DNA of 64,000 bases. Origin: Botryllus schlosseri (Eukaryota). This document shows positions 5,853 through 58,662 of the stretch, in pieces. The notes under the pieces were generated by a model. That model was not told the DNA's origin and searched no databases. It saw only the letters and a program-made list of their open reading frames with translations. Position 1 is the first letter of the stretch, and each line of letters begins with the position of its first letter. A program made the translations under genes and the position numbers. The stretch spans positions 24,306,001 through 24,370,000 of the forward strand of contig CM119372.1 of the NCBI GenBank assembly GCA_051294905.1. The letters run 5' to 3'.

Positions 5853-7041
5853 CTCGGGTTCTCAAAAGGTGGGCCATGGCGCACTGGTGAGCCACAGGAG
5901 CATTTGAGGTGGGCCACAAAGCTATTTAGATAATTTTAGAATAAATGTAAGTTTAGCTATATTTGTTATGTTAAACGCTAAAAATATATTCATAAACCTT
6001 TTCATCGTACTCTGATGAGACGTAGTGGCACGTATGGAGTCAGAATGTACAAGTAGAAAACTGGAGGGACAAACGGCGGCTTTTTCCATTGGTTATGAAA
6101 ACCTACGGCTAACAGCGACTAAAATAATTTGGAGTATATAATAACTGGACGGTAATGCTGAAGTAACCAAGAACTCCGGCAGGGTCATATGCTGTATGTC
6201 GCTGAAAGGGGTGTGCAATAAACTCGAAATGAAGTGCAATTGTTGTATAGATTTACTGTACTTCGGCAGGTCGTATTATTACTATTACCATCATTGGCAA
6301 TTATTAGCAACTTCTGGTGAAGGTGTACTGCACCACTGCAACGAATCGTAATGGTAATGGATTGAGGATTTAGCTGAGCGCATTAATCTGAGGAGTCGGT
6401 TGAAAATGTCCGGCCAGGAAATCATTGTACACAATGTAAGAGTCAGATGAATTAATTGTATCACTGGGTTGGATATTCTGCATCGCAACTTCAGTTGGTT
6501 TGTTACAAGACATACAGTAAACATTGTACAGCATGCATATTAAAAAAACTTTTTCTCCACTTCTCTGTATTACCACCTTCATTAATGAATGGTTTGAAGC
6601 TGACCCAGAATGATTATATTATTTCCCGACAATAGTGGAACTAAAACCCCAATCACACAGTGGATCATTGATCATTGTGTTTCGCGACGCGAATGGAGCA
6701 GCGGACGATCATAATATACAAAGGAGATTTAGCCTATGATCTACCAGGCCCGTAACTACCGCACCCAGCCCTCAAATTGGGGGAGATCGAGGGAGCGCAA
6801 GATTATTTCGTTGTTCGAGGATACTAATTCAACTTGAAAATTTTCGTCGCGCTTGGCGCGATTTCATGTCCCGAGAGGTCTGCATTTAAATATAATCGGT
6901 AGGCTATATTAAGAGAAATAGGCATATCGGCGCTGTCGGTTAACACGCGTTGAACGAGATTATGACTCTAAGATAAGTGGGCCACAGCACATTTTCAAAC
7001 CGGAAAATGGGCCACGGCCAGGAAATGGCTGAGAACCCCTG
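5853..7041. mobile_element. Non-autonomous hAT-type element
   Basis: Imperfect TIR (CTCGGGTTCTCA...TGAGAACCCCTG) and a perfect 8-bp TSD GTCTATTT at 5845-5852 and 7042-7049. Confidence 0.75.
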
Positions 7042-7159
7042 GTCTATTTCTTCATCGCACCATAATAAATTATGCTGTTTGAGGTCCACAACCTCACATG
7101 TACATTATATAATATGGGTGCCAGTAGTTAAGTAGATCGGTCGCATGACGCAATGGGGT

Positions 7160-7620
7160 TCTTATGGCGGGGTGGCGATTCGCCGTGAAAACCCGGGGTG
7201 GCGATTCGCCTCTTATCTCTTATGGCGGGGTCGCGATTCGCCATGTGTTCATATGGGTGCGGTCGTGATTCGCCTTTTCAGGTATAGGCTGCGGTCGTGA
7301 TTCGCCGTGAAAACTCGTGGTCGTGACTCGCCTTTTTTGCTATAGGCGGTGGCGGTGATTCGCCTGTCGTGTATTCTTACGGGTTCTGTGGTGATTCGCC
7401 ATGTGTTCTTATGGGTGCGCTCGCATGTCGCACTTTCGGGTATAGGCATCTCTCGCACATCGCATGGAAAACTCGTGGTGGCACATCGCCCTTTCGGGTA
7501 TTGGCATCTCTCGCACGTCGTACTTTCGCATGTCGTGCTTTCGCGTATAGGTTGTGTTGGTGATTCGCCATGCGTTCTTATGGGTGTGGCGGTGATTCGT
7601 ACTTTCGGGTATATACATCT
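7160..7620. repeat. Subterminal GC-rich repeat array of the Maverick end (mirror copy at about 20325-20785)
   Basis: Repeated GGCGATTCGCC / GTGATTCGCC / TTCTTATGGG blocks. GGCGATTCGCC is itself an imperfect palindrome. Confidence 0.8.
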
Positions 7621-10600
7621 CTCGACCGGTGTTGAATATGTATCAAGTAAATAGTCATGTGAATGAATCTTTGTTAATGTGTATATCGGGCCGCACAAAC
7701 GGAAACGCGGCTTGTTGTGAGGATTAAGCAGTGCGACCTATATTTCGAATGACCTGTGTGTGGAATTGTTTCACGGCCAGCCGCGTGCTACTATCGATTA
7801 CACTAATCCAGTCAGCACTATTACATTCAGGAGTATTCAGTATTCAGCAGCGACACGAAAAGCGATCAACAAATAACCGCGTTCACAAACTAACACTTCA
7901 AAAATGTGTGAAATAGTTTGCAAAACCCCGCGATCGCTGACAAGATAATGTCTCGGCCATAACCATTTTAGTGACTTGGTGTTAAAGACATACCGATCGC
8001 TCACAAGGTAATATTTCGGTCATTAGTTTGTCACAGAGTCGTCGCAGACGGTGATTCGAAAACCAACAATTTGACACTTTCTGGTGCTTGCTATATGTTT
8101 TGACACTTCGGAACGTGGTTGACTTTAGTTGTATAATAAGAATCATGTGAATATACAAGTAATGTGGCAATTTGTCAACTTGAAATGAAACTTACTGCAC
8201 AAACCAAGTTGATTCGTATCTGATAGTGTTAATTCGGTACAATTCTAATTATTTTGAGAAATCTTTTGATTCGACCGTAACCGAATATTACTGACGCCGA
8301 CTTTCAGCCGCATCGAATTATTCGCACATTCCGCGCCGCTGTTTTCGCACTTATAGAATCAATACAATTATAACTCTACAAGAATCAAGAATCACAAGTA
8401 TGTGTATTATACAGTTATTGTCTTTATCAACATGAAATCAAACTCTTAACAAAAACACGCAACTAATCATTTGCCAGCTCTAACATTATCAAAAAATTCC
8501 AGTATTGTTGATTGAAAATCCTCGAGTCCTTGTTATCAAAAACGTTATAGTACGGTGTCGGAATCCATTCGCGGGGTGTACTAAAGCTAAATCCAGATAA
8601 TCCAAAATGAAATATTTGGACTTTGACATAGTGTGAATTGAAATAGGATTGACAAACATGACTACCAACTTCCCCACAGTCCCGTTTCGATATTATACAC
8701 ACATTGATTTGAAACAAGTAATGAAATATTACAACTCTATTCACGGTCTGGCTTTCCGTTTGTCAAAGAGATATTTTACATCTTACCATACTCAAAAGAA
8801 TTATTCACAACATTACCAATTGTTAAAAATCTAGTTTTTCAATTACTTGATTATATCACTGCAACTCATGAATTTAAATTAATTCATCCTGGTTGTATTC
8901 GTATGCTCGGTCTTTTTTATTCAATTGTAAAGGTTGTTACTATTCTGAAAACAAAGTATTTACTAATCGATGCATATACGATTTGACTTGGACATATTAT
9001 ATTTTGAGTATACGAGATTTGAATGTCAGAACAATAACTGAGAATTAATTTATCACAATTAAATCCGCATATTACAGCGTAAAAGATATTGGAATGTCAA
9101 CAACTCTGTAAGGTCATAGTTACTACCACTAATTTACCCGACCAACTCGTCATGATCATTCCCGAAATCAACACAAACATGACCACTGACTTGAGTTAAC
9201 CACAAAACAGCATCAAGTTTTAAATCCACTTGTAGCTTACGGCTTATTTGAATGCGGGTTATGTTTTGTTGTAATTGAGTGTACGGAAATAGTATTACGT
9301 CTCGACATCTTACCATCTTACCATATTCAAAGAATCAACCACAATAACATTGTCAAGTAAATCCGTTACCCGACCAACTCAAACAGTATCAGTATGAAAA
9401 ACAGCCAAACATACACGAATCCATACAATCACTAAAACCTAAAATCCATAACAAGGTCGGATGTATTCGTATCCCTACGCATCTTTTTTAATCAACTTGA
9501 AAAGTCGTTACTATTCTGTAAGAGAGAGGGATTACTACGCGGTATATTCTGCAAGACAAACTAATTACTACTCGGTATATTTTGTGAGACAAAAGTAATT
9601 ACTCTTTGGTACAGGGGACTTGAGCTTAACATAATATGTTTGAGTATACGAGATTTGAAAGTCTGATCGACGTAGTTGCGACTTCATTTCTTACAATCGA
9701 ACGCTGGTGTTACATTGAAAGTTATCATGCTGTAAACATAAGGATTGACACATCGATTTAACATATGTAATAGTTGATCATGACTTGATTATTAAATTAT
9801 TCGCGTTAATTAGACCCGGCGTTGTGTTGAAAGTTATGACAGCAACAAACTTTTCAGTACCAATGTTATTAACATATTAAGCTGTAAAACTATGCGTGTC
9901 TGAAATGTTCTTGAATGGAAAATTATTCCACCTTGGTACATATCACCCTGCGTATCGCGGATATCAGAAAATATTTTACAAATGTAATTGTCCCCACTAA
10001 CCAAGACTAAAGATGAAACAACAATTTCCTTTGTTAAACAATAACCGGTACAATACTTTATCATCGTAATCAGCAGTGAGAATTGAAACACTTTCGCACA
10101 TTATCCGGTGTCAAGATATCACACTAGGTGAATTGACATACCGCCGCTTGCATAATACCTAATCCGTTCACACCATTTCACATACTTTGATCATTACAAA
10201 AGTAAATTGGAATATGTTTGCTAGATGCATTCAATTCAGTTAGAAATGTCTGGTGCACAACAATCGTAATATCAAAAAAGTACTTGCTACACTGTTATTT
10301 GCTAAACGTGTTTTGCATTGTTGTTCATTTGTAGTATTGATTGTTCTTGAACCCTCAAAGAATAATTCCCGACATGAAACCAAGCCACTGAAAGTCGTTA
10401 CCATCACGAAGAAACAATGTGTACGATGTTTGTCAAATGTGTCCTACCTGATCAACAGAAAACAATTTTCACTCACTCGAAATGAAACCAATGTGATGGC
10501 CTCCATTCGATATTTTGTTTGTGTCAAATACTTTGCAATGAACACATTTGCGTGGTTGAGCTTTACATCATCAAGCTGTTATTTGTAAATCAAGATTTCG

Positions 10601-12159
10601 GTAAACTTGTAAATGTATCGTTTAACTAACCAACATTTAGTGATTGTTGAACATACGACTTCGAAATACTGCGTTGATCGTAATTTCCATAATCGTGATA
10701 ATCGAAGTACATTTCTTTCGAATTCGTAACAACCGGCGTTTCTACGACATGATAAATTTTTGACAAGTTATGCTTAGAAGATTGGTTGCATATCGCGAAA
10801 AATAATATACCACTCATATTGATACTGTTACTCCATTGATCGATATTTTCAAACGAGTAAAATTTATTACTTGAGTTTCTCCGCTTAATGTAAATGCAAA
10901 CTCAGCCGTCTTTTAACATCACAAAGGCATTGATAAAAAGTAGACAATCAAACACAACACTTTGTACGACACTAATTATTGTTCCACACATCTCATTTCA
11001 TACTAAGTGTATACGAAAGATATTCACGACACATGAAAATATTCGCTCATGCTACGAACATACGCAATGATTGGTGGTGCTTTCAAACTGTTTCGATATC
11101 ACAAGAACTTTATTGTCTGAATGGGTGTTCATGTATCTTAATAATCAAATAGTTCAACACAGAACTAGTACTAACAGAAACATCAGAGTTGTTTACACAA
11201 AAGTTTGTATGTGTACAGTATGCGAATACCATGTGTAAGTCCAGCACAATTGCAGTATCCATCCGAGTAAATTTATTACAACGGAGCCACGTAAACTTTC
11301 GTGAAAGAAAAGCATACTCACTTCCAGAGGGTTATGTCAACACCATAGCAGTAAATCAGCTACTCCAACAACAAAGTACATATGTTTCTAGCCACGATCC
11401 TTACATCTTTCACATAGATCAATCTACTTTGCTAACGAAAAGTGATGAGTCATCACATGATCGCCCTCACAACAAAACAGCTAGTAGATATTATCATTCA
11501 AAATATTCCTAACCCTTTACACACCAGTGACAAATCATACAACGAATATGTTTTGTGGGTCGAATTGTTGTTCAGTGTCAAGTCTACCTGTTGAAACGTA
11601 CATTAAAAAAGTGCAATTCAATTAAAACCACGAATCTATTTTCATTTCGTCACATACAGAAATATAAATTTTCTTTCCCCAACACATACTTGTAACCAAT
11701 CGCTTTCATTAAACACACAACTTCATAAAAGTATTTACTTTCTACAACATAGACATTCCGATGTAGTCAAGAAATATTTTTATTAATCAAAATCATCGAC
11801 TTCTGTTTACGGCGTTAGTGTGTGCATGTCATACATGTGGGATCCGTATTAAAATGGACACGACACGACTGAATGTAAGGAGATAGAAGTCTATCGCATA
11901 GATTTACATGTGGTCTTCGCTACGGTTTCAAAAAACGAATCACCTCTTTTGCATTGATCGAGACCGAGCGAGTTAGTTAATGGCCATGATTGTGTTTGTC
12001 ATATGCGAATGATAGGGTTACTGTCAAATCTACATACAACAACCTTCTGGCACTCATAATAGCAATTTCATTCTCTACCTTCGTAATTGTAGACTCACGA
12101 CAAGTATATTGTACAACTCGACAGCTACGTTTAACAACACCAACGACACTAAACATACG

Positions 12160-12780
12160 ATACCTACCCAAGTAAAATTACCATTTTCACCTGGAGGTCA
12201 GTCGTTACCTGAGTAAAAATACCATTATTCCTTGGAGATTTATCGTTTAATCAGAGTAACAAAACATTTTCACTTGGGGGGTCTATCGTTTCCAAGAGTA
12301 ACAAGCCCCCTTTCCTTTGGAAATCTATTTTTTCCCTGGGTAACAAACCTTTTTCACTTGGAAATATATTTTTTCTCTGGATAACAAACCTTTATCACTT
12401 GGAAATATATTTTTTTTCCCTGAGCAACAAACCTTTTTCACTTGGAAATATATTTTTTCTCTGGATAACAAACCTTTTTCACTTGGAAATATATTTTTTC
12501 TCTGGGTAACAAACCTTTTTCACTTGGAAATATATTTTTTACCTGAGTACCAAACCTTTTTCACTTGGAAATATATTTTTATCCTACAGCAACAAACCAT
12601 TTTCACATGGAAAACTACTTTTACCTAGAGTAACTAATCATTTTCTTTTGGAAATATATTTTCTCCCTGGGTAACAAACCCGTTTCGTTTGGAAAACTAT
12701 CATTTACCTGAGTACCAATACCGTTTGCACTTGGAAATCTATCTTTTCTCTGGGTAACAATACCATTTTCGTTTTGAAAA
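12160..12780. repeat. 41/42-bp minisatellite, about 15 units (left arm)
   Basis: Unit CACTTGGAAATATATTTTTTCTCTGGRTAACAAACCTTTTT. Period is 41 in the centre and 42 in some diverged edge units. Confidence 0.9.
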
Positions 12781-14437
12781 CTGACAACCACACCCGACAA
12801 TTTGATATTTTTGTATATTGTTACAACGGGCAGTGACAAAATATACACCAACAACGACTCCGATACATTTGTGCAATCGCATATTTACTTGTGTTGGTGC
12901 ATCCCATCAAAATCATCGGTTACCCACATGCAATGTGCTCTTGTATATCGAAATGCATGTTTGGGAAATTGGACAATAGGTTTCGATAGGTCTGTGATGT
13001 CCGGGCTCGTGCTTTGGATTTTCCAGAGTCAAAATGTCTGAATAAAACACCTCCTCGACGATGGTTGGTATGTGGATAACGGTGTTCGGAAAACGGTTGG
13101 ATTTATGTCACCCATCGCGATAACAATTCCATGTCGAGTTTTCCCCGCATGTTTACTATATTGTGTCTTTATTGATCAATGTATGTCTCGACATTCAGTT
13201 TGAAATCGGAAACTCTGATAAAGTATGTAACCGGATCCGGATATCAACTCTGAATCGATAAACCAATGAACAATATTCAAAGTAAACATGTTACACCCTG
13301 TGTTTCCACGAAAAAATACCATCCAGACATACGTCGCGCTTGTTTGCCCACACCAGTATACGCGTAAATGGAGGTGTGTGACATTGCATGCAATGTGTTG
13401 GTATACAAACATCGATCCACAGACATTATCATAGCCGGTAGTTTTGATGTAGATCGAATGTCACCCGATAACAATACCAATAAGCCACATTGCAATGACT
13501 CTGAGTCCGCGCTATTACATCGATATTTCGACACCGTTCACTGATTTACTCGATGGTGTTATCGTGTTGTTACATTGCAAGATAGTCATGACCTTATCTG
13601 CAGACGGACCACCCAGACCAATTGGATACATCGGTCAATATCCGTCGTGTTGTCGACACCGAAGTTCTCTGCTGCAGCGTTTGATCAATGTGAACTATCG
13701 AAGTACGGTGCTCGAAATGATTGCGATCAGTCTTTCACTAAATCACGATGCATGGATGTCGCTACTCCTACATAACGACTCCAGATAAATATCGTGAACA
13801 GTGATTCTACAAATGTCGGGCTGATATTGTGATCCAATAAGGTGTGTTTCTGTGAAGACTGCAATCGTACATCACAAATAGAACACTACCTCGTGATTTC
13901 ACACGCAAGCATATTACACACTTTCGTAAGGGTCCAGTTCGTCCGGCGACATTTCGAAACGGTCATCGCCACAAGAGATCGAGGTTGGTCTCGTCATATC
14001 GGAGCATTTTGAAACTGTCATCACCACAAGTCTATTGACGCCGATTCTGTTGGTCATGTCAATCCGTTTCACAATCCATCGTTTTTCAACTCCCCGCACC
14101 ATAGTGTTACGACACAGACAAGAAGCGTCGGAGGGAATAATAAAACACGGAAAGCACACTTTGGTGTTATTTGACATGGATTTTACACCCGACGAACCTT
14201 ACATTCGAGCGATGCATTGGAATGACGCTTGTATTATTGACGTAGAAGGAACAGAAATGTATCGATTTATTGGTTTCGTACATATCCAACAAAAATCTGG
14301 GTATGTGATTGTGCGTGGTTCGCATATTCGACTGTGAACGCTCTATTGGTATATGCTGTATAGTTCACTTTCACCGTCGTGCGAATAACCCATGTTACGG
14401 TTCCATGTTTGTGCGTCTGTATGTCATGCTTCAGATT

Positions 14438-17400
14438 GACTCAGAGTCATTGCAATGTGGCTTATTGGTATTGTTATCGGGTGACATTCGATCTACATCA
14501 AAACTACCGGCTATGATAATGTCTGTGGATCGATGTTTGTATACCAACACATTGCATGCAATGTCACACACCTCCATTTACGCGTATACTGGTGTGGGCA
14601 AACAAGCGCGACGTATGTCTGGATGGTATTTTTTCGTGGAAACACAGGGTGTAACATGTTTACTTTGAATATTGTTCATTGGTTTATCGATTCAGAGTTG
14701 ATATCCGGATCCGGTTACATACTTTATCAGAGTTTCCGATTTCAAACTGAATGTCGAGACATACATTGATCAATAAAGACACAATATAGTAAACATGCGG
14801 GGAAAACTCGACATGGAATTGTTATCGCGATGGGTGACATAAATCCAACCGTTTTCCGAACACCGTTATCCACATACCAACCATCGTCGAGGAGGTGTTT
14901 TATTCAGACATTTTGACTCTGGAAAATCCAAAGCACGAGCCCGGACATCACAGACCTATCGAAACCTATTGTCCAATTTCCCAAACATGCATTTCGATAT
15001 ACAAGAGCACATTGCATGTGGGTAACCGATGATTTTGATGGGATGCACCAACACAAGTAAATATGCGATTGCACAAATGTATCGGAGTCGTTGTTGGTGT
15101 ATATTTTGTCACTGCCCGTTGTAACAATATACAAAATATCAAATTGTCGGGTGTGGTTGTCAGTTTTCAAAACGAAAATGGTATTGTTACCCAGAGAAAA
15201 GATAGATTTCCAAGTGCAAACGGTATTGGTACTCAGGTAAATGATAGTTTTCCAAACGAAACGGGTTTGTTACCCAGGGAGAAAATATATTTCCAAAAGA
15301 AAATGATTAGTTACTCTAGGTAAAAGTAGTTTTCCATGTGAAAATGGTTTGTTGCTGTAGGATAAAAATATATTTCCAAGTGAAAAAGGTTTGGTACTCA
15401 GGTAAAAAATATATTTCCAAGTGAAAAAGGTTTGTTACCCAGAGAAAAAATATATTTCCAAGTGAAAAAGGTTTGTTATCCAGAGAAAAAATATATTTCC
15501 AAGTGAAAAAGGTTTGTTGCTCAGGGAAAAAAAAATATATTTCCAAGTGATAAAGGTTTGTTATCCAGAGAAAAAATATATTTCCAAGTGAAAAAGGTTT
15601 GTTACCCAGGGAAAAAATAGATTTCCAAAGGAAAGGGGGCTTGTTACTCTTGGAAACGATAGACCCCCCAAGTGAAAATGTTTTGTTACTCTGATTAAAC
15701 GATAAATCTCCAAGGAATAATGGTATTTTTACTCAGGTAACGACTGACCTCCAGGTGAAAATGGTAATTTTACTTGGGTAGGTATCGTATGTTTAGTGTC
15801 GTTGGTGTTGTTAAACGTAGCTGTCGAGTTGTACAATATACTTGTCGTGAGTCTACAATTACGAAGGGAGAGAATGAAATTGCTATTATGAGTGCCAGAA
15901 GGTTGTTGTATGTAGATTTGACAGTAACCCTATCATTCGCATATGACAAACACAATCATGGCCATTAACTAACTCGCTCGGTCTCGATCAATGCAAAAGA
16001 GGTGATTCGTTTTTTGAAACCGTAGCGAAGACCACATGTAAATCTATGCGATAGACTTCTATCTCCTTACATTCAGTCGTGTCGTGTCCATTTTAATACG
16101 GATCCCACATGTATGACATGCACACACTAACGCCGTAAACAGAAGTCGATGATTTTGATTAATAAAAATATTTCTTGACTACATCGGAATGTCTATGTTG
16201 TAGAAAGTAAATACTTTTATGAAGTTGTGTGTTTAATGAAAGCGATTGGTTACAAGTATGTGTTGGGGAAAGAAAATTTATATTTCTGTATGTGACGAAA
16301 TGAAAATAGATTCGTGGTTTTAATTGAATTGCACTTTTTTAATGTACGTTTCAACAGGTAGACTTGACACTGAACAACAATTCGACCCACAAAACATATT
16401 CGTTGTATGATTTGTCACTGGTGTGTAAAGGGTTAGGAATATTTTGAATGATAATATCTACTAGCTGTTTTGTTGTGAGGGCGATCATGTGATGACTCAT
16501 CACTTTTCGTTAGCAAAGTAGATTGATCTATGTGAAAGATGTAAGGATCGTGGCTAGAAACATATGTACTTTGTTGTTGGAGTAGCTGATTTACTGCTAT
16601 GGTGTTGACATAACCCTCTGGAAGTGAGTATGCTTTTCTTTCACGAAAGTTTACGTGGCTCCGTTGTAATAAATTTACTCGGATGGATACTGCAATTGTG
16701 CTGGACTTACACATGGTATTCGCATACTGTACACATACAAACTTTTGTGTAAACAACTCTGATGTTTCTGTTAGTACTAGTTCTGTGTTGAACTATTTGA
16801 TTATTAAGATACATGAACACCCATTCAGACAATAAAGTTCTTGTGATATCGAAACAGTTTGAAAGCACCACCAATCATTGCGTATGTTCGTAGCATGAGC
16901 GAATATTTTCATGTGTCGTGAATATCTTTCGTATACACTTAGTATGAAATGAGATGTGTGGAACAATAATTAGTGTCGTACAAAGTGTTGTGTTTGATTG
17001 TCTACTTTTTATCAATGCCTTTGTGATGTTAAAAGACGGCTGAGTTTGCATTTACATTAAGCGGAGAAACTCAAGTAATAAATTTTACTCGTTTGAAAAT
17101 ATCGATCAATGGAGTAACAGTATCAATATGAGTGGTATATTATTTTTCGCGATATGCAACCAATCTTCTAAGCATAACTTGTCAAAAATTTATCATGTCG
17201 TAGAAACGCCGGTTGTTACGAATTCGAAAGAAATGTACTTCGATTATCACGATTATGGAAATTACGATCAACGCAGTATTTCGAAGTCGTATGTTCAACA
17301 ATCACTAAATGTTGGTTAGTTAAACGATACATTTACAAGTTTACCGAAATCTTGATTTACAAATAACAGCTTGATGATGTAAAGCTCAACCACGCAAATG

Positions 17401-20400
17401 TGTTCATTGCAAAGTATTTGACACAAACAAAATATCGAATGGAGGCCATCACATTGGTTTCATTTCGAGTGAGTGAAAATTGTTTTCTGTTGATCAGGTA
17501 GGACACATTTGACAAACATCGTACACATTGTTTCTTCGTGATGGTAACGACTTTCAGTGGCTTGGTTTCATGTCGGGAATTATTCTTTGAGGGTTCAAGA
17601 ACAATCAATACTACAAATGAACAACAATGCAAAACACGTTTAGCAAATAACAGTGTAGCAAGTACTTTTTTGATATTACGATTGTTGTGCACCAGACATT
17701 TCTAACTGAATTGAATGCATCTAGCAAACATATTCCAATTTACTTTTGTAATGATCAAAGTATGTGAAATGGTGTGAACGGATTAGGTATTATGCAAGCG
17801 GCGGTATGTCAATTCACCTAGTGTGATATCTTGACACCGGATAATGTGCGAAAGTGTTTCAATTCTCACTGCTGATTACGATGATAAAGTATTGTACCGG
17901 TTATTGTTTAACAAAGGAAATTGTTGTTTCATCTTTAGTCTTGGTTAGTGGGGACAATTACATTTGTAAAATATTTTCTGATATCCGCGATACGCAGGGT
18001 GATATGTACCAAGGTGGAATAATTTTCCATTCAAGAACATTTCAGACACGCATAGTTTTACAGCTTAATATGTTAATAACATTGGTACTGAAAAGTTTGT
18101 TGCTGTCATAACTTTCAACACAACGCCGGGTCTAATTAACGCGAATAATTTAATAATCAAGTCATGATCAACTATTACATATGTTAAATCGATGTGTCAA
18201 TCCTTATGTTTACAGCATGATAACTTTCAATGTAACACCAGCGTTCGATTGTAAGAAATGAAGTCGCAACTACGTCGATCAGACTTTCAAATCTCGTATA
18301 CTCAAACATATTATGTTAAGCTCAAGTCCCCTGTACCAAAGAGTAATTACTTTTGTCTCACAAAATATACCGAGTAGTAATTAGTTTGTCTTGCAGAATA
18401 TACCGCGTAGTAATCCCTCTCTCTTACAGAATAGTAACGACTTTTCAAGTTGATTAAAAAAGATGCGTAGGGATACGAATACATCCGACCTTGTTATGGA
18501 TTTTAGGTTTTAGTGATTGTATGGATTCGTGTATGTTTGGCTGTTTTTCATACTGATACTGTTTGAGTTGGTCGGGTAACGGATTTACTTGACAATGTTA
18601 TTGTGGTTGATTCTTTGAATATGGTAAGATGGTAAGATGTCGAGACGTAATACTATTTCCGTACACTCAATTACAACAAAACATAACCCGCATTCAAATA
18701 AGCCGTAAGCTACAAGTGGATTTAAAACTTGATGCTGTTTTGTGGTTAACTCAAGTCAGTGGTCATGTTTGTGTTGATTTCGGGAATGATCATGACGAGT
18801 TGGTCGGGTAAATTAGTGGTAGTAACTATGACCTTACAGAGTTGTTGACATTCCAATATCTTTTACGCTGTAATATGCGGATTTAATTGTGATAAATTAA
18901 TTCTCAGTTATTGTTCTGACATTCAAATCTCGTATACTCAAAATATAATATGTCCAAGTCAAATCGTATATGCATCGATTAGTAAATACTTTGTTTTCAG
19001 AATAGTAACAACCTTTACAATTGAATAAAAAAGACCGAGCATACGAATACAACCAGGATGAATTAATTTAAATTCATGAGTTGCAGTGATATAATCAAGT
19101 AATTGAAAAACTAGATTTTTAACAATTGGTAATGTTGTGAATAATTCTTTTGAGTATGGTAAGATGTAAAATATCTCTTTGACAAACGGAAAGCCAGACC
19201 GTGAATAGAGTTGTAATATTTCATTACTTGTTTCAAATCAATGTGTGTATAATATCGAAACGGGACTGTGGGGAAGTTGGTAGTCATGTTTGTCAATCCT
19301 ATTTCAATTCACACTATGTCAAAGTCCAAATATTTCATTTTGGATTATCTGGATTTAGCTTTAGTACACCCCGCGAATGGATTCCGACACCGTACTATAA
19401 CGTTTTTGATAACAAGGACTCGAGGATTTTCAATCAACAATACTGGAATTTTTTGATAATGTTAGAGCTGGCAAATGATTAGTTGCGTGTTTTTGTTAAG
19501 AGTTTGATTTCATGTTGATAAAGACAATAACTGTATAATACACATACTTGTGATTCTTGATTCTTGTAGAGTTATAATTGTATTGATTCTATAAGTGCGA
19601 AAACAGCGGCGCGGAATGTGCGAATAATTCGATGCGGCTGAAAGTCGGCGTCAGTAATATTCGGTTACGGTCGAATCAAAAGATTTCTCAAAATAATTAG
19701 AATTGTACCGAATTAACACTATCAGATACGAATCAACTTGGTTTGTGCAGTAAGTTTCATTTCAAGTTGACAAATTGCCACATTACTTGTATATTCACAT
19801 GATTCTTATTATACAACTAAAGTCAACCACGTTCCGAAGTGTCAAAACATATAGCAAGCACCAGAAAGTGTCAAATTGTTGGTTTTCGAATCACCGTCTG
19901 CGACGACTCTGTGACAAACTAATGACCGAAATATTACCTTGTGAGCGATCGGTATGTCTTTAACACCAAGTCACTAAAATGGTTATGGCCGAGACATTAT
20001 CTTGTCAGCGATCGCGGGGTTTTGCAAACTATTTCACACATTTTTGAAGTGTTAGTTTGTGAACGCGGTTATTTGTTGATCGCTTTTCGTGTCGCTGCTG
20101 AATACTGAATACTCCTGAATGTAATAGTGCTGACTGGATTAGTGTAATCGATAGTAGCACGCGGCTGGCCGTGAAACAATTCCACACACAGGTCATTCGA
20201 AATATAGGTCGCACTGCTTAATCCTCACAACAAGCCGCGTTTCCGTTTGTGCGGCCCGATATACACATTAACAAAGATTCATTCACATGACTATTTACTT
20301 GATACATATTCAACACCGGTCGAGAGATGTATATACCCGAAAGTACGAATCACCGCCACACCCATAAGAACGCATGGCGAATCACCAACACAACCTATAC

Positions 20401-20822
20401 GCGAAAGCACGACATGCGAAAGTACGACGTGCGAGAGATGCCAATACCCGAAAGGGCGATGTGCCACCACGAGTTTTCCATGCGATGTGCGAGAGATGCC
20501 TATACCCGAAAGTGCGACATGCGAGCGCACCCATAAGAACACATGGCGAATCACCACAGAACCCGTAAGAATACACGACAGGCGAATCACCGCCACCGCC
20601 TATAGCAAAAAAGGCGAGTCACGACCACGAGTTTTCACGGCGAATCACGACCGCAGCCTATACCTGAAAAGGCGAATCACGACCGCACCCATATGAACAC
20701 ATGGCGAATCGCGACCCCGCCATAAGAGATAAAAGGCGAATCGCCACCCCGGGTTTTCACGGCGAATCGCCACCCCGCCATAAGAACCCCATTGCGTCAT
20801 GCGACCGATCTACTTAACTACT
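14438..20822 (-). repeat. Right arm of the giant inverted repeat (6,385 bp)
   Basis: Reverse complement of 7123-13507. Differences noticed by eye: substitutions near 7212 and 12077, and compensating 1-nt homopolymer indels near 12415 and 12810 (left-arm coordinates). Confidence 0.97.
15166..15785. repeat. 41/42-bp minisatellite (right-arm mirror copy)
   Basis: Reverse complement of 12160-12780: TTTCCAAGTGAAAAAGGTTTGTTACCCAGAGAAAAAATATA units. Confidence 0.9.
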
Positions 20823-21730
20823 GGTGCCGTGTTAAGAGTAAATGTATGTACAAGTGAAGAACTATAGGTGCATTATTATTCTCAATTTTTTTGCCAACTA
20901 AATTCAATATGAGCATTGAGTATACATCTAAACCACATTTTCAGTTGATTTTGTAGTCGTACAGAGCAATAAAACAAATCCCAATGCAATCAAGCTCCCC
21001 TTATCGCCAGAAGGGGAAGTCGATGCGGAATGTGAACACTGTACATTACACTATATCGCAATTGGCAATAAAGGTGTGACCCCATACCCGACGGTTGTAC
21101 TAGCAACTTTAATTTGATCTCGAATATAGTTCGTACAATTATTAGATCATTAATTAGTCGAGTGCATGGTCACTGGGCGCGATACAAGCTTGAAATATTT
21201 CCAATAGTGAAGTTAACAACTGTAAAGACCGATCGACCTCTTCTCAGTCGTTTTTCGCGCAATCCATAAAATATGGAAGCGCCAGACTCTTCGAATTTCT
21301 GAAAAGGGACGCTGGAGGAAAAAGATTAAAAACCATTGGTCTAAACTACAGTGGTACCCAAAAGGGCCGCAATAACGCCATGGGGGCGTTTGCCGCCTCG
21401 AAGGGGCCGTCAGATGCAAATTGCGCGATTGGGGGCGGTTTTTCAAGAATTCAGCCCGCCTTAATACCTTTGACAGCAAGAAAATAAATAAATGACGCGT
21501 AATAGATAATGCGGACGTACGAGCGGGTCATTCGGGAGCAGGACTGGAAAATGACCTTTTGTTAATTAAACATGATAGCAATATCGGTAAAAGTGGGTAA
21601 ATTACTCAACACAACAAGATTTCCAGTAAATATTTCGAAATCAGCTGTTTTCAATTTCGGTAAGCTAATTTTTTTCTTTGTACAACGTGTTCTCATTTCC
21701 GAATTCCCAAATATGGTAACTATAGTATTA

Positions 21731-24933: not shown

Positions 24934-26769
24934 CTGTCAAGTAATGAAGACTAACTAACGATTTAGTTGCAAAAGACTAATTTTGTGCGGTAGGCAACTG
25001 CAAAATATGCAACAAGTCAGTCCTCTGGTCAGCAGATCGGTGTCGTTCCGTGACATGTCTCCTACCACCAGACATAATGAAATTATATATCTCAATCCCA
25101 AAAGGCAAGAGGTTGGGTGCCTGCACATGGAATAGGGATATCAAATTTTGAATTCGTTTGGGAGTGTTGAACGATTTGTTTGCATGGCGTCGTTACAGAA
25201 AGTTCATCGTCTACATTATAGGCGTTCGTCACAATGGTACAAGTGTTATAAGAAACTATCAAAAAGTAGCCCGCAACTCGTGTAGCCTACGTATAATTCG
25301 ATAATATGAGTACATTTTGGAGCGAATAACATAGAAAAAATACCTAAACTTACAATTTTCCAAATAGCTTTGTGGCCCACCTCAAAATGCACCTGTGGCC
25401 CATCATTTGAGAACCCCTAGCCTAGACCAAGGTGGGTGTCTGATTCCAAAGACTACTCCAAGTCGTTCCGACAGCATCCTATATTTTTATTGTATCGAAA
25501 TTTTTGTGGTGTATCGAACTGACAAAAATTGCTAATAAACCGAACCGAACTCAAGCCTTATAGACCAAAATTACTATATTTAAAGAACTCATTAACGTAA
25601 TGTACTTCAATCACTGATCTATATAAATTTCAATAGCTGTTGAACCACTGAGACATCTGTGGTCGATAAAAGTTGTCAACAGGTTCTTTGAAGTCTGGCT
25701 CCATGTCGGAAGTGAAAACCCTTAGTAAAGACTGCGCGTGAATGTCAATTAGATTGGGACGCAGCTTTGTCTTGTTAATGTTCAGATTGCAGAGCTTGCA
25801 GACACGCGAGCCCCATTATCATGTACGACCAGAATTCGGATCCGGTCCTGATCCGGCCCGCGACGAGATTTTGTCCGGCCTGCGGACAGTTTCCACTCTT
25901 AGTTGATAATGTGGCCCGCCGGCCGGTGTCCGGTAAATGCCGATAATGCAAGTCTTCTCGCTTCTACTTACTTACGAGTAAGCTCCACTCTCGCACGCTG
26001 CGCACACACGCATATAATAACATACAGTCACTAAAATTTGACGTAGTAGGCAAGTAGTGGGGAATCTCGGCAGACTAGGGCCGCGGGGGTTTATACCAAC
26101 ACCGAGAAAACCATTACCGAGAATGCGTGCGAGAGTGGAGCTTACGCGTAAGTTCGTCGAAGCGAGAAGACTTGCATTGTCAGCATTTACGATGTACTCA
26201 ACCCTAATGAATTGATTTCTTGGTAAATTTGGGGTACCGGGCTTATCGAACGCCTTGAAATGTTAGTTAATCAAAGAGAAGAGAAGTTGATCAAAGAGAA
26301 GCAGACATGGCGGCGCCTGTATGACAATGGTGTTCTCAAATCCACATCGTCTTCGTCATTATCGGCGAGAAATGGCTTTAAAATGACATTGCTGTCGTTA
26401 CAATATATTCATTACATGCGAATAATGTATCGATTCAGCTATCCGGCCCGCCAAGTAGTTAATTTTCCTACATCCGGCCCGCCGACTGGAGAAGTTGCCC
26501 GCCCCTGGTTTAGAAGGTCCGATGGCTATGACTAATGCGTAGATGGGAAGAGATATATCTCGTCTTCTACAGTATTTTGGATTTTGGCAATTTTTCAATG
26601 GTAATATCCTCTTTAATGAGTCATATCATTTTATTGTTACTAGTCGACAGACACTCCTTACTCTCGAGCATTCTCTGTCTTGAGACATAGGCAGAATTTG
26701 AAACGGTGCCTTCAATCTCGAATTACTAGTAACGCTTATATATCACCAACATTGACGATAATTACTGAC

Positions 26770-28152
26770 CTCTATGTATTTCATAGGACGATTCAGAAAA
26801 AACCACACCAGCAGCAAATTGACGAACCACAGACCAACGTTGATCATGGAGATGATGGTTGTCGAACCGAGTGAACTCTTCGACGCTCAATTCCGCAACA
26901 CAGCTAGCTGCTAGAAACTCTTGTATGCTCTGATGACAAAAGCAGAACGTGAAATCACCTTCCATCAAACGACGACTAAGCAAATTGTTATCAGGAACTT
27001 TCATCATTAAATCTTGCACTTCGTTTGCCGTAAGATTAAATTTCTTCAAATCGGTCTCGTAAAATATGACTCTTCCTTCAGTCATGCCTTGGAAAGCCAT
27101 TAATTTCAATTTATTGATTATTGTTACAATTTGATTGTACTGTCGTATGTTTTCTACGCTTTGCAGATTTGATATGATCCTATTGTACAGTTCTGTAACT
27201 GTGAACGGAGGTGGCTTATTTGGATCCCTACCCGTTACAACCGCCGTTAAAATGAGGAAAACCGGAATGGATATTAAATGAAGCAAACGAGGTGATATGT
27301 TGCTAATCCTGTTCCAAAGCTCTTGACCATGAGCGCCAATGAGATGAACGAATAGTTTTTCGGCGTCTTGTTCTGTGAGACCTGCGAGAGTAATCATATT
27401 TGTTGGTCGGGCCCTCGCGGGTAGTTCGGAGACTTTGAATTCACGCGAGGATATGAGGATCTTGACGCGAGGAAGGATGTTGCGAGATAATATGTTGTAC
27501 ATGATGGTCGAGGTCGATCCAGCATCATAGTGATTGATTTTAACGTCCTTGATTTCATCAAAATTCCAGCGTGCTTGATCCAACCCATCAAAAATCAGAA
27601 CAGCTTCATTTTGATTTTCAACAAGCCAATTGTATATTTGTTCTTTGCCACTCTCACTTGCATAAAGCCCACGGAATAATAACCGTGAAGGCTTTACAGA
27701 ATCTTCATTTTCAATATTCTTTATTTCAATGTAATGTACCATTTTGTAGTGTAATGGTGTGCTTTGTTCTTGGTCGCTCTGGATATCGAGAGCTTTCCGT
27801 GCTATTCTACGCATGAGTATTGTTTTACCGGACCCCGCCGACGCGACAACAGCAGTGACAACTTTTGCCTGTGACTCTTGTTGTTCGCCCTCCAATATTG
27901 ATGTCATCAAATTTGCGAATGTGACAAAGTTATCGTCGTTTGACTCTTGATGCTGGAATCCGAATTCCGAAACAAGCTGTTTATAACGACCTTTGTAATA
28001 GTCCATCGGCTCAAACGATCGCATCAATGGGAAGACTTGAAAGCTCGGTTCATGAAGACCTTCGTTTTTAAAGTCTTCTAGAATGCAATCATTAGTCTTT
28101 TGTTTGGTGTTGTCATTGACGACTTTAATCAGCTTCACAAAATCTTCACCGC
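26770..28152 (-). CDS. NACHT-domain exon of an NLR-like protein
   Basis: 458-aa ORF with Walker A ASAGSGKT, Walker B LIFDGLDQ, sensor-1 ILISSR, the IPVF proline motif and winged-helix FCHQSIQEFLAA. taatAG acceptor and GTCAGT donor; 1383 bp, phase 1-1. Confidence 0.93.
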
Positions 28153-28700
28153 CTATTAATAGAGATACTTAGCTGTGATACCAACAGATCAAAAAATATA
28201 TTGAACACAGATGAATAATTTGATTTCTGATGAGAGAGGACATGACAATCATTCATAAGCAATATATATATGTTGATAAATTTCTATTTGCCAGCATTGT
28301 CAATCATCAAATATCGAGGGGTCATCTAAACGGCGGTTTCGTAGTGGTTGGTTCAGTCATCTGTGACATTAGCCTAACCAATGGTTGGTCCATCCATATA
28401 GGACTATAGCCAATCATTGCAGAGGTTGCCATTGACGAAGTGCTTCTACTTTTCGAAGTACTGCAAGTCGATTTGGCAATTTGCACTACTTTCTCAAGTG
28501 GTTATGATTTTAGACTACTTCTACTTGACAATTTTCAGGCTTAGAATACCTCCTTTTTTTTAAATCTTGACTTTTACTTCTATTTCGAGTCGAACTTTAC
28601 GGCATTATACTTCTACTTCTAGAGCACCTCCATATTAGTCCGTAAAAGCTCTTTTTCGGTGAGCTGAAAGTCAGCTAACCCGTACATTTGCAGATCAGAT

Positions 28701-34164: not shown

Positions 34165-34990
34165 GCAGGCGGGTTTTGCGGGTGAGTAGCAGGGTTTTTC
34201 ATTTGGTTCGAAGGGTTTCGCGGTTGTCCAGAAGGGTTTTGCGGATAACTAACAAGGTTTTGCGAGTGCTTTGCAGGGTTTTGCAGTTGTCTGGAAGGGC
34301 TTTGTGGGTAACTGGCAGAGTTCTGCGGTTTACTAGAAGGCTTTGGCGGGTGGAAAACGGGGTTTTGCGACTGTATAGAAGGGTTTTATGGTTAACTAGC
34401 AGGGGTTTAGGGGTCACTAACAGGGTTTATCGGGTGCTTAGCAGGGTTTTGCTGTTGTCTAGAAGGGTTTTGCGGGTAACTAGCAGAGTTCTGCGGTTTA
34501 CTAGAAGGCATTGGCGGATGGAAAACGGGGTTTGCAGTTGTATATAGGAGGGTTTTGCGGGTAACTAGCAGGGTTTTGCGGGTGATTAGTCAATCGCAAA
34601 ACCCTGCTAGTTACCTGCAAAACCCTCCTTTACAACTGCAAAACACTGGTATTCAACCAAAAAAAAGCTCCTATACAACTGCAAAAATCTGGTAGTCAAC
34701 CGCAAAACCCTCTTATACAACCGCAAAATCCCGTTTTTCACTCGCCAAAGCCTTCTAGAAAACCACACAATTCTGCTAGTTACCCATAAAACCCTTCCAG
34801 ACAACAGTAAAACCCTGCTAAGCACCCGCAAAACCATGTTAGTGACCCTCAAAACCCTTCTAGTTACCCACAAAACCCTGTTAGTGACGCGCAAAACCCT
34901 GTGAATTTCCCGCAAAACCCTTCTGAACACCCGTAAAAACCTCCTATAGCCAACTACAAAACCCTGCTAGTCACCCGCAAAACCCTGTTG
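34165..34990. repeat. 21-bp minisatellite arranged as two inverted arrays
   Basis: AGGGTTTTGCGGGTAACTAGC units up to about 34590, then GCTAGTTACC..CAAAACCCT units on the opposite strand. Confidence 0.9.
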
Positions 34991-48800: not shown

Positions 48801-50338
48801 CTGCCAGCTAAAACTGGTGCGGTTGAACGTTCTTTATCCATTCTCACCAAGCTACTTCATAAGACAGTTTCTACCATTTCATTATATACCAATATTTAGG
48901 TGTTTTTCAAACGATATCAATTTCAATAAATGACTGACTACCAGAAAATGTGGCAAAGTGACTCATTGTACCACAGTAAATTTTGACATTTTTTACAATA
49001 ATGCGTGTTTTAACTACGTTGGTCAAAATTTTATTAAAATAACTTTTTATAATCTAAAAATTGTCTAAACTTTCTATTTTTTAGGAACAATTTTTCACTT
49101 TTGCGTCAGAAAATGATCGCTCTAATGATGACATATTTTAATTGTCAGATTCTCGCTCAGATTCATATTTTCCATTATTCTGCATAGGGGTGTACAACTT
49201 TTATGCCAACGCTAAAAGGGTTTACCATTGCGAAAAAGGTTGAAGACCACTGTTCTAGTGGCGTCAATAGGAGCTTCAAGAAGTTTGATTGATCATACTA
49301 AGGGGGCGTGTGGCCTCGGTGGGGTGGCTGACGAAGTGCTGTTTCGCTCCTGACTGGGAGCGTATGGACGAGTTAGGGTTCTGGTTAAAATCATTTTACC
49401 CGTGATTAAAATTGATGGGAATGAATGGGATGAAAATGGGATGAATGACGACCACGTCAAACAAGGCGATGAAGGATAGCACTTAAACTTTAATAATGTG
49501 GGGCTGTGAATTATCATCCAGATAGCTGAAAACGTTCGACCTATATGTGGTAATGATAGCGGAATACGTTTAACCTGTATGATAATGATGGGTCGCCAGA
49601 ATCAATACTGATCTGTTCTAGTAGCGAGGAAAAATGTTGAGTCAAATCGGGACCATCCATAATAGTTGCATCTTCATGTGGATCGATGGAGGGGTTTCTG
49701 CCAGCAAACTGGATCAGACATGAGGGAATCTTTCGAATTCGGTAGACACTCCGGATTGCGCTTCGTTTGCGGCATCCCACCAGTGCCTCGGAAATAGCAG
49801 CAGCATGTCGCAGACAACTAACTAGTATCCATAACAAAACGCTAACATATTGATTGACTATCGCTGTTTGCATTTTTCCCATCTGTCTGTCAAATAGCTG
49901 AACTATACCGGTGACAGTGACTAGATACTATCTCCGGTTTATATAAAATGTACATGGTGGTCCGAAAATAAACCACATTCACGCATCTCGTCCGAAAATT
50001 CGAAAAAAAAATACTCAATAAAATCAAAATAGTAAAATTAAAATAAAAAATCAACGAAAAAAAACCTGATTTAAACCAGAATCCTAGACGAGTAGTGTGG
50101 CATGGATATGTCATCACGAAATAAAAAACACCCACAGCAATAAAGTGGTGATAGCGACTTGGATCAAGATAGATCAATTTTCCCAAAGAAAGCGCCAGCT
50201 ATATTGGGCGATGGGGTGGCGGTGAGAGTAAACATTGGCAATATACCCTGTGGGAAGCTGTTAATAGTTCTCTCTGTGCACCAAAGTCATATTTATGAAT
50301 ATGTGACCACGACGCCCGAGGTCGCACAAGAGGCATTC

Positions 50339-50921
50339 AATTATAGGTAACTGAGCTATGAATAGATACGCAACACCCGTCGTCACGCTTGCTTGCCCGG
50401 AGGTGATTACTACTCCGCAATCTGAACGCAACATAATTGCTAATCCCATAGCTGACGACCCGCGTGCTCAAATTCAATAAAGTTGATCTTAATTGAAAGT
50501 TACCGTCTCACTGATTCCGAAAATATACATTAAAATCTAATCGGGGCAATGGAATCCCCTTGAAATACACCTAAAAGTTTGAAATTCGGCATTGTTCTGA
50601 ACAATCGCAACCACGCAAGGGCCATCGTTATGGTCATTGTGTTGCGTCGCTGCGATTGTTTAGAACAATGCCGATTTTCAGACTTTAGGGTGTATTTCCA
50701 GGGAGTTTCATTGCCCTGATTGGATTTTAATGTATATTTTCGGAATCAGTGTGGCATTAGCTTTCAAATAAGATCAACTTTATTGAATTTAAGCGCGCGG
50801 GTCGTCAGCTATGGGATTAGCAATTAGGTTGCGTTCAGATTGCTGAGCAGTAATTACCTCCGGGCAAGCAAGCGTGACGACGGGTGTTGCGTATCTATCC
50901 GTTGGTTAGTTATCTATAATT
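50339..50921. repeat. About 580-bp fold-back (palindromic) element
   Basis: About 280-bp arms (AGATACGCAACACCCGTCGTCACGCTTGC...CCCATAGCTGACGACCCGCG) mirrored about a centre near 50628. Confidence 0.85.
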
Positions 50922-53602
50922 CAATCGAAAATCGCCACCAATGACCCCGCAGACTCTCATTGTTATGAAACATTGAGTTTCTAACTAACCAAATAAGGAA
51001 CAGACTAATTGCTAATTGACACGCATTGATCGCAACTGATGAGCACACATTCAAACCCATGTACAACAGAGCGGGGCATGGACCGGAGCCGGTCTAATTT
51101 CTTCATTTTTAGCCGGACCCGGGTCGGAGTCGGATTCATATTTTTCCGATGCGACCTGAGTCGGATCAGAGCCGGATCGTACTTTTCTGATATCGGTACT
51201 TCGGCAGGTCGCATTATTGTAACATCTGGTTCGTGGTACCGAACTTGAATATAGCTTTCAATACAACATCCACTGTAAAAGAATATTTACTGAACTCCAA
51301 GACTTTTCGGGTGCCTCTTTTCAAGAGTTAACGGCACACTAAAGGGATTTAAACAGATCTGAATGCAAAAACCAAAAAGGCTAAGTATGACGCAACAATC
51401 AAAATCACAGACCATGAAATTCGCATGGTACCAAATTGATTCGGTCAAAAACATGCGCAAATGAACGCACGGAGCTCGCACGTCAGTGCAAATTGGCTGC
51501 CAAAACAGACTGCTATGACGATTACCAAGCATATGCTTCGTCAATTGGTCAGCATCTGAGTGAATACCTCGCCTGTGCACAGCACTATAATGACATTATG
51601 TTCACTGTCATTGCGCTGCATATCTTTGTTTCATTTAAAAGTGTTGGAGTCTGCTTTTATTCAGTTGACCAAACCTATTTTACGCAGACAAAAAGATTTC
51701 CTCTATAACCTACAAATTTCTCATTAGTGCGTGTTGTTTCGTGCGTGTAACTGTTTATTTACAAATGGCGTTGCTACTTTAGTACCGGGTTTCCAGTAAA
51801 CTCGGCCCACGGTAAATTCGGCCCGGTAAATTCGGCCCGCGGTCACTTCGGCCGTCGGTAAATTCGGTCCTCGGTAAATTCGGCCTGGGCCATGGTAACA
51901 ATAACAGTTACAATAACATTAAAAACGTTTTTGGCTTAGAAACAGGCATGTTTTTACATGAAAAAAAAAACAATATTTTAACGAAATCTGGCCCTATGAA
52001 GAATACCAGTGGTTACAATATGTATTATGGTAGAAATAATTAGAATATTTTGTAGTACAACGATAGATGCTTTCCTACATTCTTGGGTAGAAAGTGCACG
52101 TCCTTACTAAGAACCTTGTCAAGAACGTTCAACAGCAGCAGTTGTTGGCCGACAACACCCAAGTTGTGCGTACACTGCTGGTGCTGGTGACACACCGTGT
52201 TGCTTCATTCTGACAATGTTGTCTACATCACAATTTTTCATCATGCGCTTCTTAATATAAGAATGATGCAATGCAAAAGAAGTCTTTCTTCAGTTAGGAT
52301 ATTGCGGTACATTGACCATAACACCATGTCTACCTATTATTTTTTTTTACCGTTTATGATTCACAATGAGCAGACGATTAGCCGTTTACAACGGTAGGCC
52401 AATAAAATAGGCTAAAAGCGGTAAAATATCAAATTATAAGTTCACCGACAGTGCTAAATCTACGATACAAACAAAATGCAGACGTCAAATTTTTTTTAAT
52501 TTTATGAAAAATTTTGACAAATTTTGACCTAACGCTGCAATTATGACAAAATTTAGACAAATTTTGACATGTCAAAAAAAAAACGCCCTACTAATGACAT
52601 ATATTTGGGATCCCCAATCTACGTCATCCGATTTACCATTAGAGCTGAGGGAGGTGAGGGCTTCGAAATTTAGGGAACGTTTATGATATTACATGGTAAT
52701 TACTTTGTTGCATGTTACGACGAATGCGCCGTCATCGAAACCGCCGACCAATTCTTGATATCATGCGTAAAACACGAATGTCATCGGTCGTTTTTTAATA
52801 AGTCATTCCAATGAGTTACATATTCCTTTGACCGTACGTAACCTACGTACCTAGTTACCGTTTGATTTGAATTACCTGAATACCGTGGCGCACATGGCCA
52901 TAAAGGGCGATAAGCTCCACGTGAATTTTCATTTATCATATTAATATTATTGTTCTTAATGATAATAATTCGAATTAAAATTTATATTTACTCACGAAAT
53001 TATTATACACCTCCCTCGAGGCCGCTACCCCCCCCCCTCCAATAGGAAATTTGGGATGCGGCAGTTACGGCCTGTTCCCAGCAACCATGATATCCCATTA
53101 TTTCATTAAAGCCTTCGTTGCTCACTTTGGCTGGATGAGTTTGCCTCGCCACGTGCATTTGTTTTGCTTTCCGAATTGGATGGAACTTCATCTCTCTTGG
53201 ATATTGTCTCGGATCCTTGACAATACGAAATCATCGAAATATTTACTATAAGGCTACCAGCAATGATGAAAAATTTGACCAGGGAAACTATAAAAGGAAG
53301 AAATTGAAAAGTATAGTCAAGTGACATACATAAAAAATCTCGGGTGGTTTATCATTACGACGTCACTGTTTTTGGTCGCCACTGTTCGCGTGGACACGAT
53401 TTTTGCTCGATGCAGAAAGGTGGAAGAGTCATTGATATAGCTGAATATTGTGCTGCACAAGTTAAATAATTTTTGTAGATCGGTGGGGACAGCAATACAA
53501 GATTTTTGACACTCACACCGACATAATATACTTTTCGCAGCTTCATCTTGTTCAGGAAATGGATTATAGAAAAACTTTACAGTTCATTCAGTGATTTCCT
53601 AC

Positions 53603-58405: not shown

Positions 58406-58662
58406 CTACTAATTACCGCCAATCATTATTTCCTCGTGTGCCATGCATAGAGTGGCCCGCAGTTGAAATGCTATGGGTTTTAACCAATAATGTTATAATG
58501 ACGTGGAAATTTGTAATATATCACAGTGCAGAACCTACCAAGGTTAGTTTGTAAAAGTGAACCTCTAAATTTCTGAGGTTCACACACAGAACGCGAACGT
58601 GAACCGCACGTTCACACCATCCCTACTACTAATTACCGCCAATCATTATTTCCTCGTGTGCC
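58217..58662 (+). repeat. Near-perfect 220-bp tandem duplication spanning the MITE end
   Basis: 58217-58436 is repeated at 58437-58656; TGTGCC microhomology at the junctions. Confidence 0.9.

Follow-up and report, generated by a model that had tools for sequence, protein, structure and literature searches.

A high-copy family of wholly palindromic mobile elements in Botryllus schlosseri, probably derived from resident Maverick/Polinton elements

When a 64,000-bp stretch of the Botryllus schlosseri genome (contig CM119372.1, positions 24,306,001 to 24,370,000; the whole stretch is called the window hereafter) was analyzed, a mobile element consisting almost entirely of one palindrome was observed. 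The element (window 7123-20822, 13,700 bp) starts with AGTAGTTAAGTAG and ends with CTACTTAACTACT, and its two inverted arms, which together make up 93 % of the length, enclose a short unique loop. The initial annotation of this DNA had suggested a search for the same palindrome at other sites with different 6-bp duplications, and such copies were found when the genome was searched with the termini. The entire palindrome moves as one unit. It probably represents a young member of a gene-poor, non-autonomous and wholly palindromic family, which is present in many copies and derives from the Maverick/Polinton elements resident in this genome. In the initial annotation it had also been regarded as a candidate snap-back genome integrated intact; it was found instead to be a member of a family with about 450 ends per polarity, in which the layout and the junctions are inherited.

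Architecture of the palindrome and its family

The features of the element and its borders in the window are as follows.

7117-7122: left target-site duplication, GGTGCC (the same hexamer as at 20823-20828)
7123-13507, plus strand: left arm, 6,385 bp, non-coding, GC content about 35 %
7123-7700, plus strand: left terminus, with the (AGT)2 motif and about 30 bp common to autonomous Mavericks, followed by a repeat array
12317-12770, plus strand: tandem array of 11 units of 41 bp inside the arm (mirror copy at 15174-15628)
13121-13507, plus strand: inner end of the arm next to the loop, with the highest conservation in the arm (97-98 % across 10 copies)
13508-14437, plus strand: unique loop, 930 bp
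14056-14337, plus strand: recurrent frame of 91-93 codons (MSIRFT...), open in 8 of 10 loops
14438-20822, minus strand: right arm, 6,385 bp, the reverse complement of the left arm
20823-20828: right target-site duplication, GGTGCC (the same hexamer as at 7117-7122)

The termini of the element are AGTAGT...ACTACT. These ends, the GGTGCC duplication, the length of the arms, their 93 % share and the 930-bp loop had all been described in the initial annotation, and the same values were obtained when they were measured again in the window. Between the two arms of the window copy there are 2 substitutions (7212 C/T and 12077 A/C) and 2 single-base indels (near 12410 and 12808). An inverted repeat with such length and identity cannot have originated by chance, and the observed palindrome structure is confirmed as real. 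Tandem arrays are confined to 7229-7544 and 12317-12770 of the arm; in the array of the left terminus, the core GATTCGCC occurs eight times with a spacing of mostly 32 bp. The least conserved part of the arm among the 10 copies compared is its mosaic middle (9871-10870).

The genome search was performed on an assembly of 495.5 Mb in 219 contigs. With the terminal 600 bp as query, plus and minus matches paired 12-15 kb apart were observed on many contigs. The window copy and 11 others were fetched in full; these 12 copies come from 10 contigs, and every one is a giant palindrome. The arms measure 6.1-7.2 kb and the loops 331-1,902 bp, with most loops near 900 bp. In 10 of the 12 copies the loop is homologous over its full length (87-92 % identity) and has the same boundaries, and thus the arm/loop junction is not re-made in each copy. 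Every one of the 11 copies checked starts with AGTAGT, and a perfect direct 6-bp duplication, each at a different site, was found for 12 of the 14 assessable copies.

An assembly artefact or a rearrangement at a single locus (a false or local inverted duplication) had to be considered, as assemblers are known to fail on long perfect palindromes and the contigs of the DNA runs are too short to span the element. However, the 12 palindromes share one architecture while each has its own flanks, duplications and private arm differences. In addition, a contig of run X1, which may be the assembly's own sample, bridges the junction between the left flank and the terminus (7005-7164). Given the recurring architecture with independent duplications, we concluded that an artefact or local rearrangement is excluded for practical purposes.

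When a degenerate 19-base end pattern was applied genome-wide, 454 forward and 461 reverse places were obtained, compared with 5 and 7 for the reversed control, and the family comprises several hundred elements. Hand pairing of the first 100 listed pattern places gave 36 end pairs, of which 22 are 12.9-15.0 kb long, 5 are 15.8-16.8 kb, 6 exceed 20 kb (nested or compound) and 3 fall below 10 kb. The most frequent class is slightly shorter than the putative helper elements described below (15.8 kb), which agrees with the earlier statement that the length of the element is near that of an autonomous Polinton. We estimate that the family (~450 copies × ~14 kb) occupies about 1 % of the 495-Mb genome as near-perfect palindromes of 13-15 kb. 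Long palindromes are usually fragile, and they break assemblies and mislead repeat annotation. Outside this genome, scans of viral_contigs and metagenome_contigs gave no match to the ends of the family.

Among the individual copies, one of 19.6 kb (L051-L053, G000:C8:25667700-25688100) is again a palindrome, but a non-coding transposon of 5.6 kb is inserted in just one of its arms. This nested element is bounded by short inverted ends (CACTCTAAAT...) and contains tandem repeats. The host copy is truncated at one terminus, with about 146 bp of the left terminus gone.

A second copy, of 13.6 kb (G000:C8:27584701-27598330; L017, L016), has CCCGTT as its left and AACGGG as its right flanking hexamer, and these two are reverse complements of each other. 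At least three family ends are clustered at its location, which points to an inversion or to recombination among copies. The duplication AACGTG is common to copies A_C16 and N_C11 (L031/L032 and L047/L048), which are at unrelated sites, and AACGTC was seen in L027/L028. Several other duplications contain CAC or ACG, and there may be a weak target preference.

In runs X12 and X13, which are labelled as a second species, a fraction of 0.38-0.39 of the 31-mers sampled from flank, arm and loop was present. Judged by these 31-mers, near-identical family sequence seems to occur in another species.

Maverick-type ends and putative helper elements

Vertebrate Mavericks have a (AGT)2//(ACT)2 end motif and a perfect 6-bp target duplication; in intact ones the inverted repeats measure 46-1,447 bp and the total length is 12.7-24.6 kb, and vertebrate genomes contain a median of eight Mavericks each (Barreat and Katzourakis 2021, PMC8097293). 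The assignment of the ends and of the 6-bp duplication of the present element to the Maverick/Polinton type, already made in the initial annotation, was upheld by its (AGT)2//(ACT)2 termini and GGTGCC. The palindrome therefore resembles an autonomous Maverick/Polinton in its end motif, its 6-bp duplication, its possession of inverted repeats and its length, which is within the range given in PMC8097293. In contrast, it has no polymerase, integrase, ATPase, protease or capsid genes, and its inverted repeats of 6,385 bp are 4.4 times the largest reported there. The number of copies also differs, with about 450 ends per polarity against the vertebrate median of eight.

By definition, an autonomous Maverick/Polinton encodes pDNAP and an RVE integrase (PMC5499653). 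Neither was found in the present element, in which no stop-to-stop frame exceeds 162 aa (the longest is at 7249-7737, minus strand, within the subterminal repeat array) and none of the 12 frames tested against Pfam was matched. The earlier statement that no open reading frame exceeds about 150 aa was thus correct as to the absence of a long frame and slightly too low as to the limit. The arms contain no tRNA and no Rfam family at E-values up to 0.1.

The genome contains many Polintons: a search with a polymerase fragment of one of them gave 118 matches in several identity classes, and open frames of about 1,300 aa are frequent among these. At three places, Polinton genes lie between paired family end patterns about 15.8 kb apart.

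C1:4150930-4166713, 15,784 bp: open frames for integrase (359 aa), ATPase (202 aa) and pPolB (1,300 aa)
C1:30838413-30854242: open integrase and ATPase frames and a match to pPolB
C1:40818160-40833973: open integrase and ATPase frames (a pPolB match was found in the other two of the three only)

The ATPase of these elements is the packaging ATPase of the A32 type. We consider the three 15.8-kb elements likely helpers of the palindromes, which, to judge from the sequences, they are likely to mobilize in trans.

The sequence compared for these elements comprises 1.6 kb at each end of C1:4150930-4166713. This element is flanked by an ACTATC duplication and has an inverted repeat of 551 bp. No inverted symmetry was observed further in, so that the element is an ordinary Maverick rather than a palindrome into which another element has inserted. 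At its terminus, 27 of 29 bases are equal to those of the window copy, and over the first 120 bp its identity is 75 % to the window copy and 87 % to the palindrome L_C1. In addition, window 7571-7688 (118 bp) shares 95 % identity with a block in its inverted repeat. The palindromes and the 15.8-kb element are also alike in having a terminal region of about 40 bp followed by a short-unit array with a spacing of about 26-32 bp. The 8-base core of this array is uniform inside an element and varies among subfamilies, the variants including GATTCGCC, GAGGTGCC and GAGCGGCT. In C1:4150930-4166713, the core is GAGCGGCT (seven times), identical to the core of L_C1. The subterminal arrays may be arrays of binding sites which are matched to helper lineages.

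The end homology bears on the alternative that the family is a foldback transposon of another DNA-transposon superfamily with 6-bp duplications, and that its likeness to Maverick ends is coincidental or convergent. The foldback layout, the subterminal short-repeat arrays and the lack of genes would all fit such an element. However, the homology to the elements with integrase, ATPase and pPolB extends past the 6-base motif (27 of 29 terminal bases, 75-87 % over 120 bp and 95 % over 118 bp), and the gene-bearing element has matching repeat architecture and a 6-bp duplication as well. We therefore regard a foldback transposon of another superfamily as highly improbable.

The arms were also compared with Polinton sequences beyond the ends. 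Homology of the arm to the helper end was observed over about the outer 570 bp only, plus one 76-bp match. When 13 frames of a further Polinton, on contig 11, were compared by tblastn with 5 palindromic copies, nothing below an E-value of 0.35 was found; the power of this relic test is moderate, as the contig-11 Polinton is only about 42-51 % protein-identical to the putative helper lineage. It had been proposed that the arm is a decayed Polinton end copied back on itself. This origin is possible but was not shown; no relic of a Polinton gene was detected in the arms by tblastn or Pfam, and against the helper ends compared only the outer ~570 bp are helper-like.

The contig-11 Polinton was obtained by a genome profile search with PF04665. 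A search with PF03175 (DNA_pol_B_2) gave no match, and it is uninformative because the control matched nowhere either. The contig-11 Polinton (L055+L054+L056, G000:C11:4505000-4527500) is 19.4 kb long and has an inverted repeat of 359 bp; its two ends are ACTACT...AGTAGT. Its frames include a polymerase, an A32 ATPase, an integrase with a chromodomain, a caspase-domain protein and a ubiquitin-conjugating E2, and no target duplication was seen. It was ruled out as a helper, as it has different ends and shows no nucleotide or protein similarity to the palindrome.

Arm symmetry and proposed propagation

Inside a copy, the arms are 99.44-99.97 % identical (2-37 substitutions), and among copies the identity of the arms is 74-99 %. 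When the differences between copies were divided into symmetric and asymmetric ones, the counts were 568 and 7 for W and A, 488 and 6 for N and O, and 49 and 27 for the closest pair. In the subfamily to which F_C5 and B_C9 belong, an unrelated centre of about 2 kb is likewise made up of inner arm, loop and inner arm. Symmetric differences between copies together with near-identical arms indicate that the palindrome is inherited and is kept symmetric as the family spreads. Changes, including those on a kilobase scale, reach both arms in the propagating lineage, and resident copies then gain private differences. A total of 129 arm-to-arm substitutions was counted, and 89 of them are restricted to one arm. 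No asymmetry among the 129 is common to the same arm of another copy, although this test is weak with the 10 copies compared, among which there are no close sisters.

To our knowledge, there is no experimental demonstration of how Mavericks/Polintons replicate; protein priming and an intermediate of the panhandle or hairpin type have been proposed for them by analogy with adenoviruses and phages. By the same kind of analogy, a snap-back or panhandle step may take place in the replication of the palindromes. The protein-primed polymerase of a helper would initiate at the two identical ends of the palindrome, and during strand-displacement replication the displaced single strand would snap back on itself. 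In the resulting hairpin, one arm could serve as the template for the other (copy-back) or could correct it (mismatch repair), and the integrase of the helper would then insert the palindrome, producing the 6-bp duplication. New insertions would thus be symmetric at birth, with private differences accruing afterwards, and copy-back would account for the large symmetric differences too. The narrow length range just below the helper length may reflect a packaging limit. Analogous processes are found in adenovirus, whose inverted repeats undergo panhandle repair, and in strand-displacing polymerases, which can switch templates.

The main alternative for the origin of the symmetry is that the family is mobile and Maverick-dependent, and that its arms are equalized by chromosomal gene conversion with no replicative hairpin, transposition moving a master copy as it is. 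Concerted evolution of the arms is expected under conversion in place as well. Conversion can also copy large heterologies, and the symmetric centres of about 2 kb are compatible with it. On the other hand, the number of arm differences ranges from 2 to 37, and the damaged 19.6-kb copy, with its truncated terminus and one-armed insertion, has 21 of them while the 5.6-kb insertion is still present in one arm only; resident copies thus seem to diverge instead of being kept equal. The absence of inherited asymmetries (0 of 129) also speaks against conversion of this kind, within the weakness of that test. We consider equalization by chromosomal conversion unlikely.

Several observations weigh against a Maverick derivative which propagates through a hairpin. 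Arm-to-arm gene conversion in the chromosome would also yield concerted arms, and the 10 copies are too distant from one another to separate the two. The arm differences are unevenly distributed over fifths of the arm (24, 12, 13, 51 and 29); they cluster around the 41-bp array, where the alignment is unsure. The two exceptions among the 14 assessable copies are one without a duplication and one with reverse-complementary flanking hexamers. Beyond the inverted repeat of the helper, the match to the arm is 76 bp only in the 1.6-kb helper ends compared. The core of the window copy (GATTCGCC) is unlike that of the helper (GAGCGGCT). The autonomous Polinton with the same termini, for which a search had been suggested in the initial annotation, was found in part: integrase/ATPase elements with homologous ends exist, two of the three with pPolB, and no pPolB-bearing element with the exact end variant of the window copy was found. 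Finally, linear, hairpin or packaged forms of the family are putative.

A further and more specific reading is that the palindromes are true satellites of endogenous polintoviruses, replicated by the protein-primed polymerase of the helper through a self-annealed strand in which one arm is remade from the other in each cycle, sized to the helper capsid and divided into subfamilies with 8-mer arrays matched to different helper lineages. We put this forward tentatively, as a possibility which is less likely than not. If it were true, the family would be the first natural read-out of Maverick replication, and several hundred long perfect palindromes would be tolerated in an animal genome. Arms which are re-made identical during spread, and a length just under that of the likely helper, provide a testable genomic footprint of the replication mechanism and of a packaging limit.

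We also considered that the family is kept or co-opted as a source of long hairpin RNA for small-RNA silencing of Mavericks, a role which would be similar to that of the Mu killer locus of maize. If a 6.4-kb inverted repeat were read through, it would give double-stranded RNA, and the outer ~570 bp match Maverick ends. However, the arm matches only the helper ends and not the helper genes, and one or a few loci would suffice for a silencer, in contrast to the hundreds of transposed copies observed. A silencing role thus has very little probability.

Known systems, the loop frame and the surroundings

The palindromes were compared with three further kinds of inverted-repeat structure. Palindromes of the sex-chromosome type are fixed loci of tens to hundreds of kb which bear genes and undergo arm-to-arm gene conversion. 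The present family is similar to them in having arms with more than 99.4 % identity around a unique spacer and in the concerted evolution of the arms. Unlike them, it transposes as a unit, has target duplications and is present in hundreds of copies.

Foldback transposons (Drosophila FB, Galileo and sea-urchin TU) have long inverted ends, a short middle and subterminal short repeats, and are mostly gene-less. The palindromes share these features, including the short-repeat arrays near the ends. In Drosophila FB, the arms are mainly short tandem repeats and the duplication is 9 bp. Unlike foldback transposons, the palindromes have arms of mostly unique sequence, a 6-bp duplication and Maverick-type ends, and their arms are about five times as long as the longest foldback ends known to us. 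Foldback elements are mentioned in PMC6431247.

In the case of snap-back defective genomes, the palindromes are alike in being near full-length palindromes with two identical replication ends, in a length near that of the helper and in their presumed dependence on a helper. Adenovirus defective genomes with long inverted repeats are a related case. The palindromes are unlike them in being integrated, inherited and diversified into subfamilies with a constant arm/loop junction. Such constancy of the junction across subfamilies shows that the palindromes are a lineage and not a by-product made afresh in each infection. In addition, most of the palindrome arm is not demonstrably helper sequence. 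Snap-back or copy-back defective viral genomes are defined in PMC13506859, and snapback genomes of adeno-associated virus are treated in PMC8235507. In the literature searched, we found no description of a palindromic or foldback gene-less non-autonomous Maverick family; entries for non-autonomous Polintons exist in Repbase.

The recurrent frame in the loop was characterized further. It is open in all 150 scored of the 1,181 candidate genome matches (87-100 % identical), a sample biased to the best matches. The variable sites are distributed over the three codon positions as 19/17/23, and the ratio of nonsynonymous to synonymous polymorphism (pN/pS) is 0.18-0.87, both of which speak against a real gene. 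The same holds for the lack of a match in Pfam and in Atlas, which gave nothing above 0.89, with recognition below threshold. In a collection of 5.8 billion proteins, one near-identical protein was found. The AlphaFold2 model, made from 8 sequences, had a predicted local distance difference test score (pLDDT) of 44, which likewise speaks against a gene, and was too poor for a fold search. When a profile of the frame was searched, its own cluster and two weak matches were obtained, one of them a WD40 protein. The frame resembles about one and a half WD40 blades (library-wide E-value 4.7 × 10−5; hhalign probability 36 %, which is weak). None of 44 partial reads from one RNA run (about 6 % of the run) lies on the frame, which is weak evidence against a gene. 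The frame is possibly a relic of a captured fragment of a WD40-repeat gene, its coding status being unproven.

On the left side of the element, window 6723-7046 is another high-copy repeat, with about 80 % identity and 1,436 candidates genome-wide. The palindrome begins 76 bp past the end of this repeat, and those 76 bp are unique. No paralogous empty site was found via the left flank, which consists of the repeat and the 76 unique bp.

Elsewhere in the window, one frame of 468 aa (26762-28168, minus strand) is the only one of at least 180 aa. It encodes a NACHT NTPase with a winged helix of the NOD2 type, and is probably an exon of an NLR-like gene. Three small repeat structures were also observed. 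At 34171-34924, 21-bp tandem arrays are inverted and face each other. A small foldback with 284-nt arms (89 % complementary) and a 23-nt spacer is located at 50335-50925, and window 58217-58656 is a perfect 220-bp tandem duplication.

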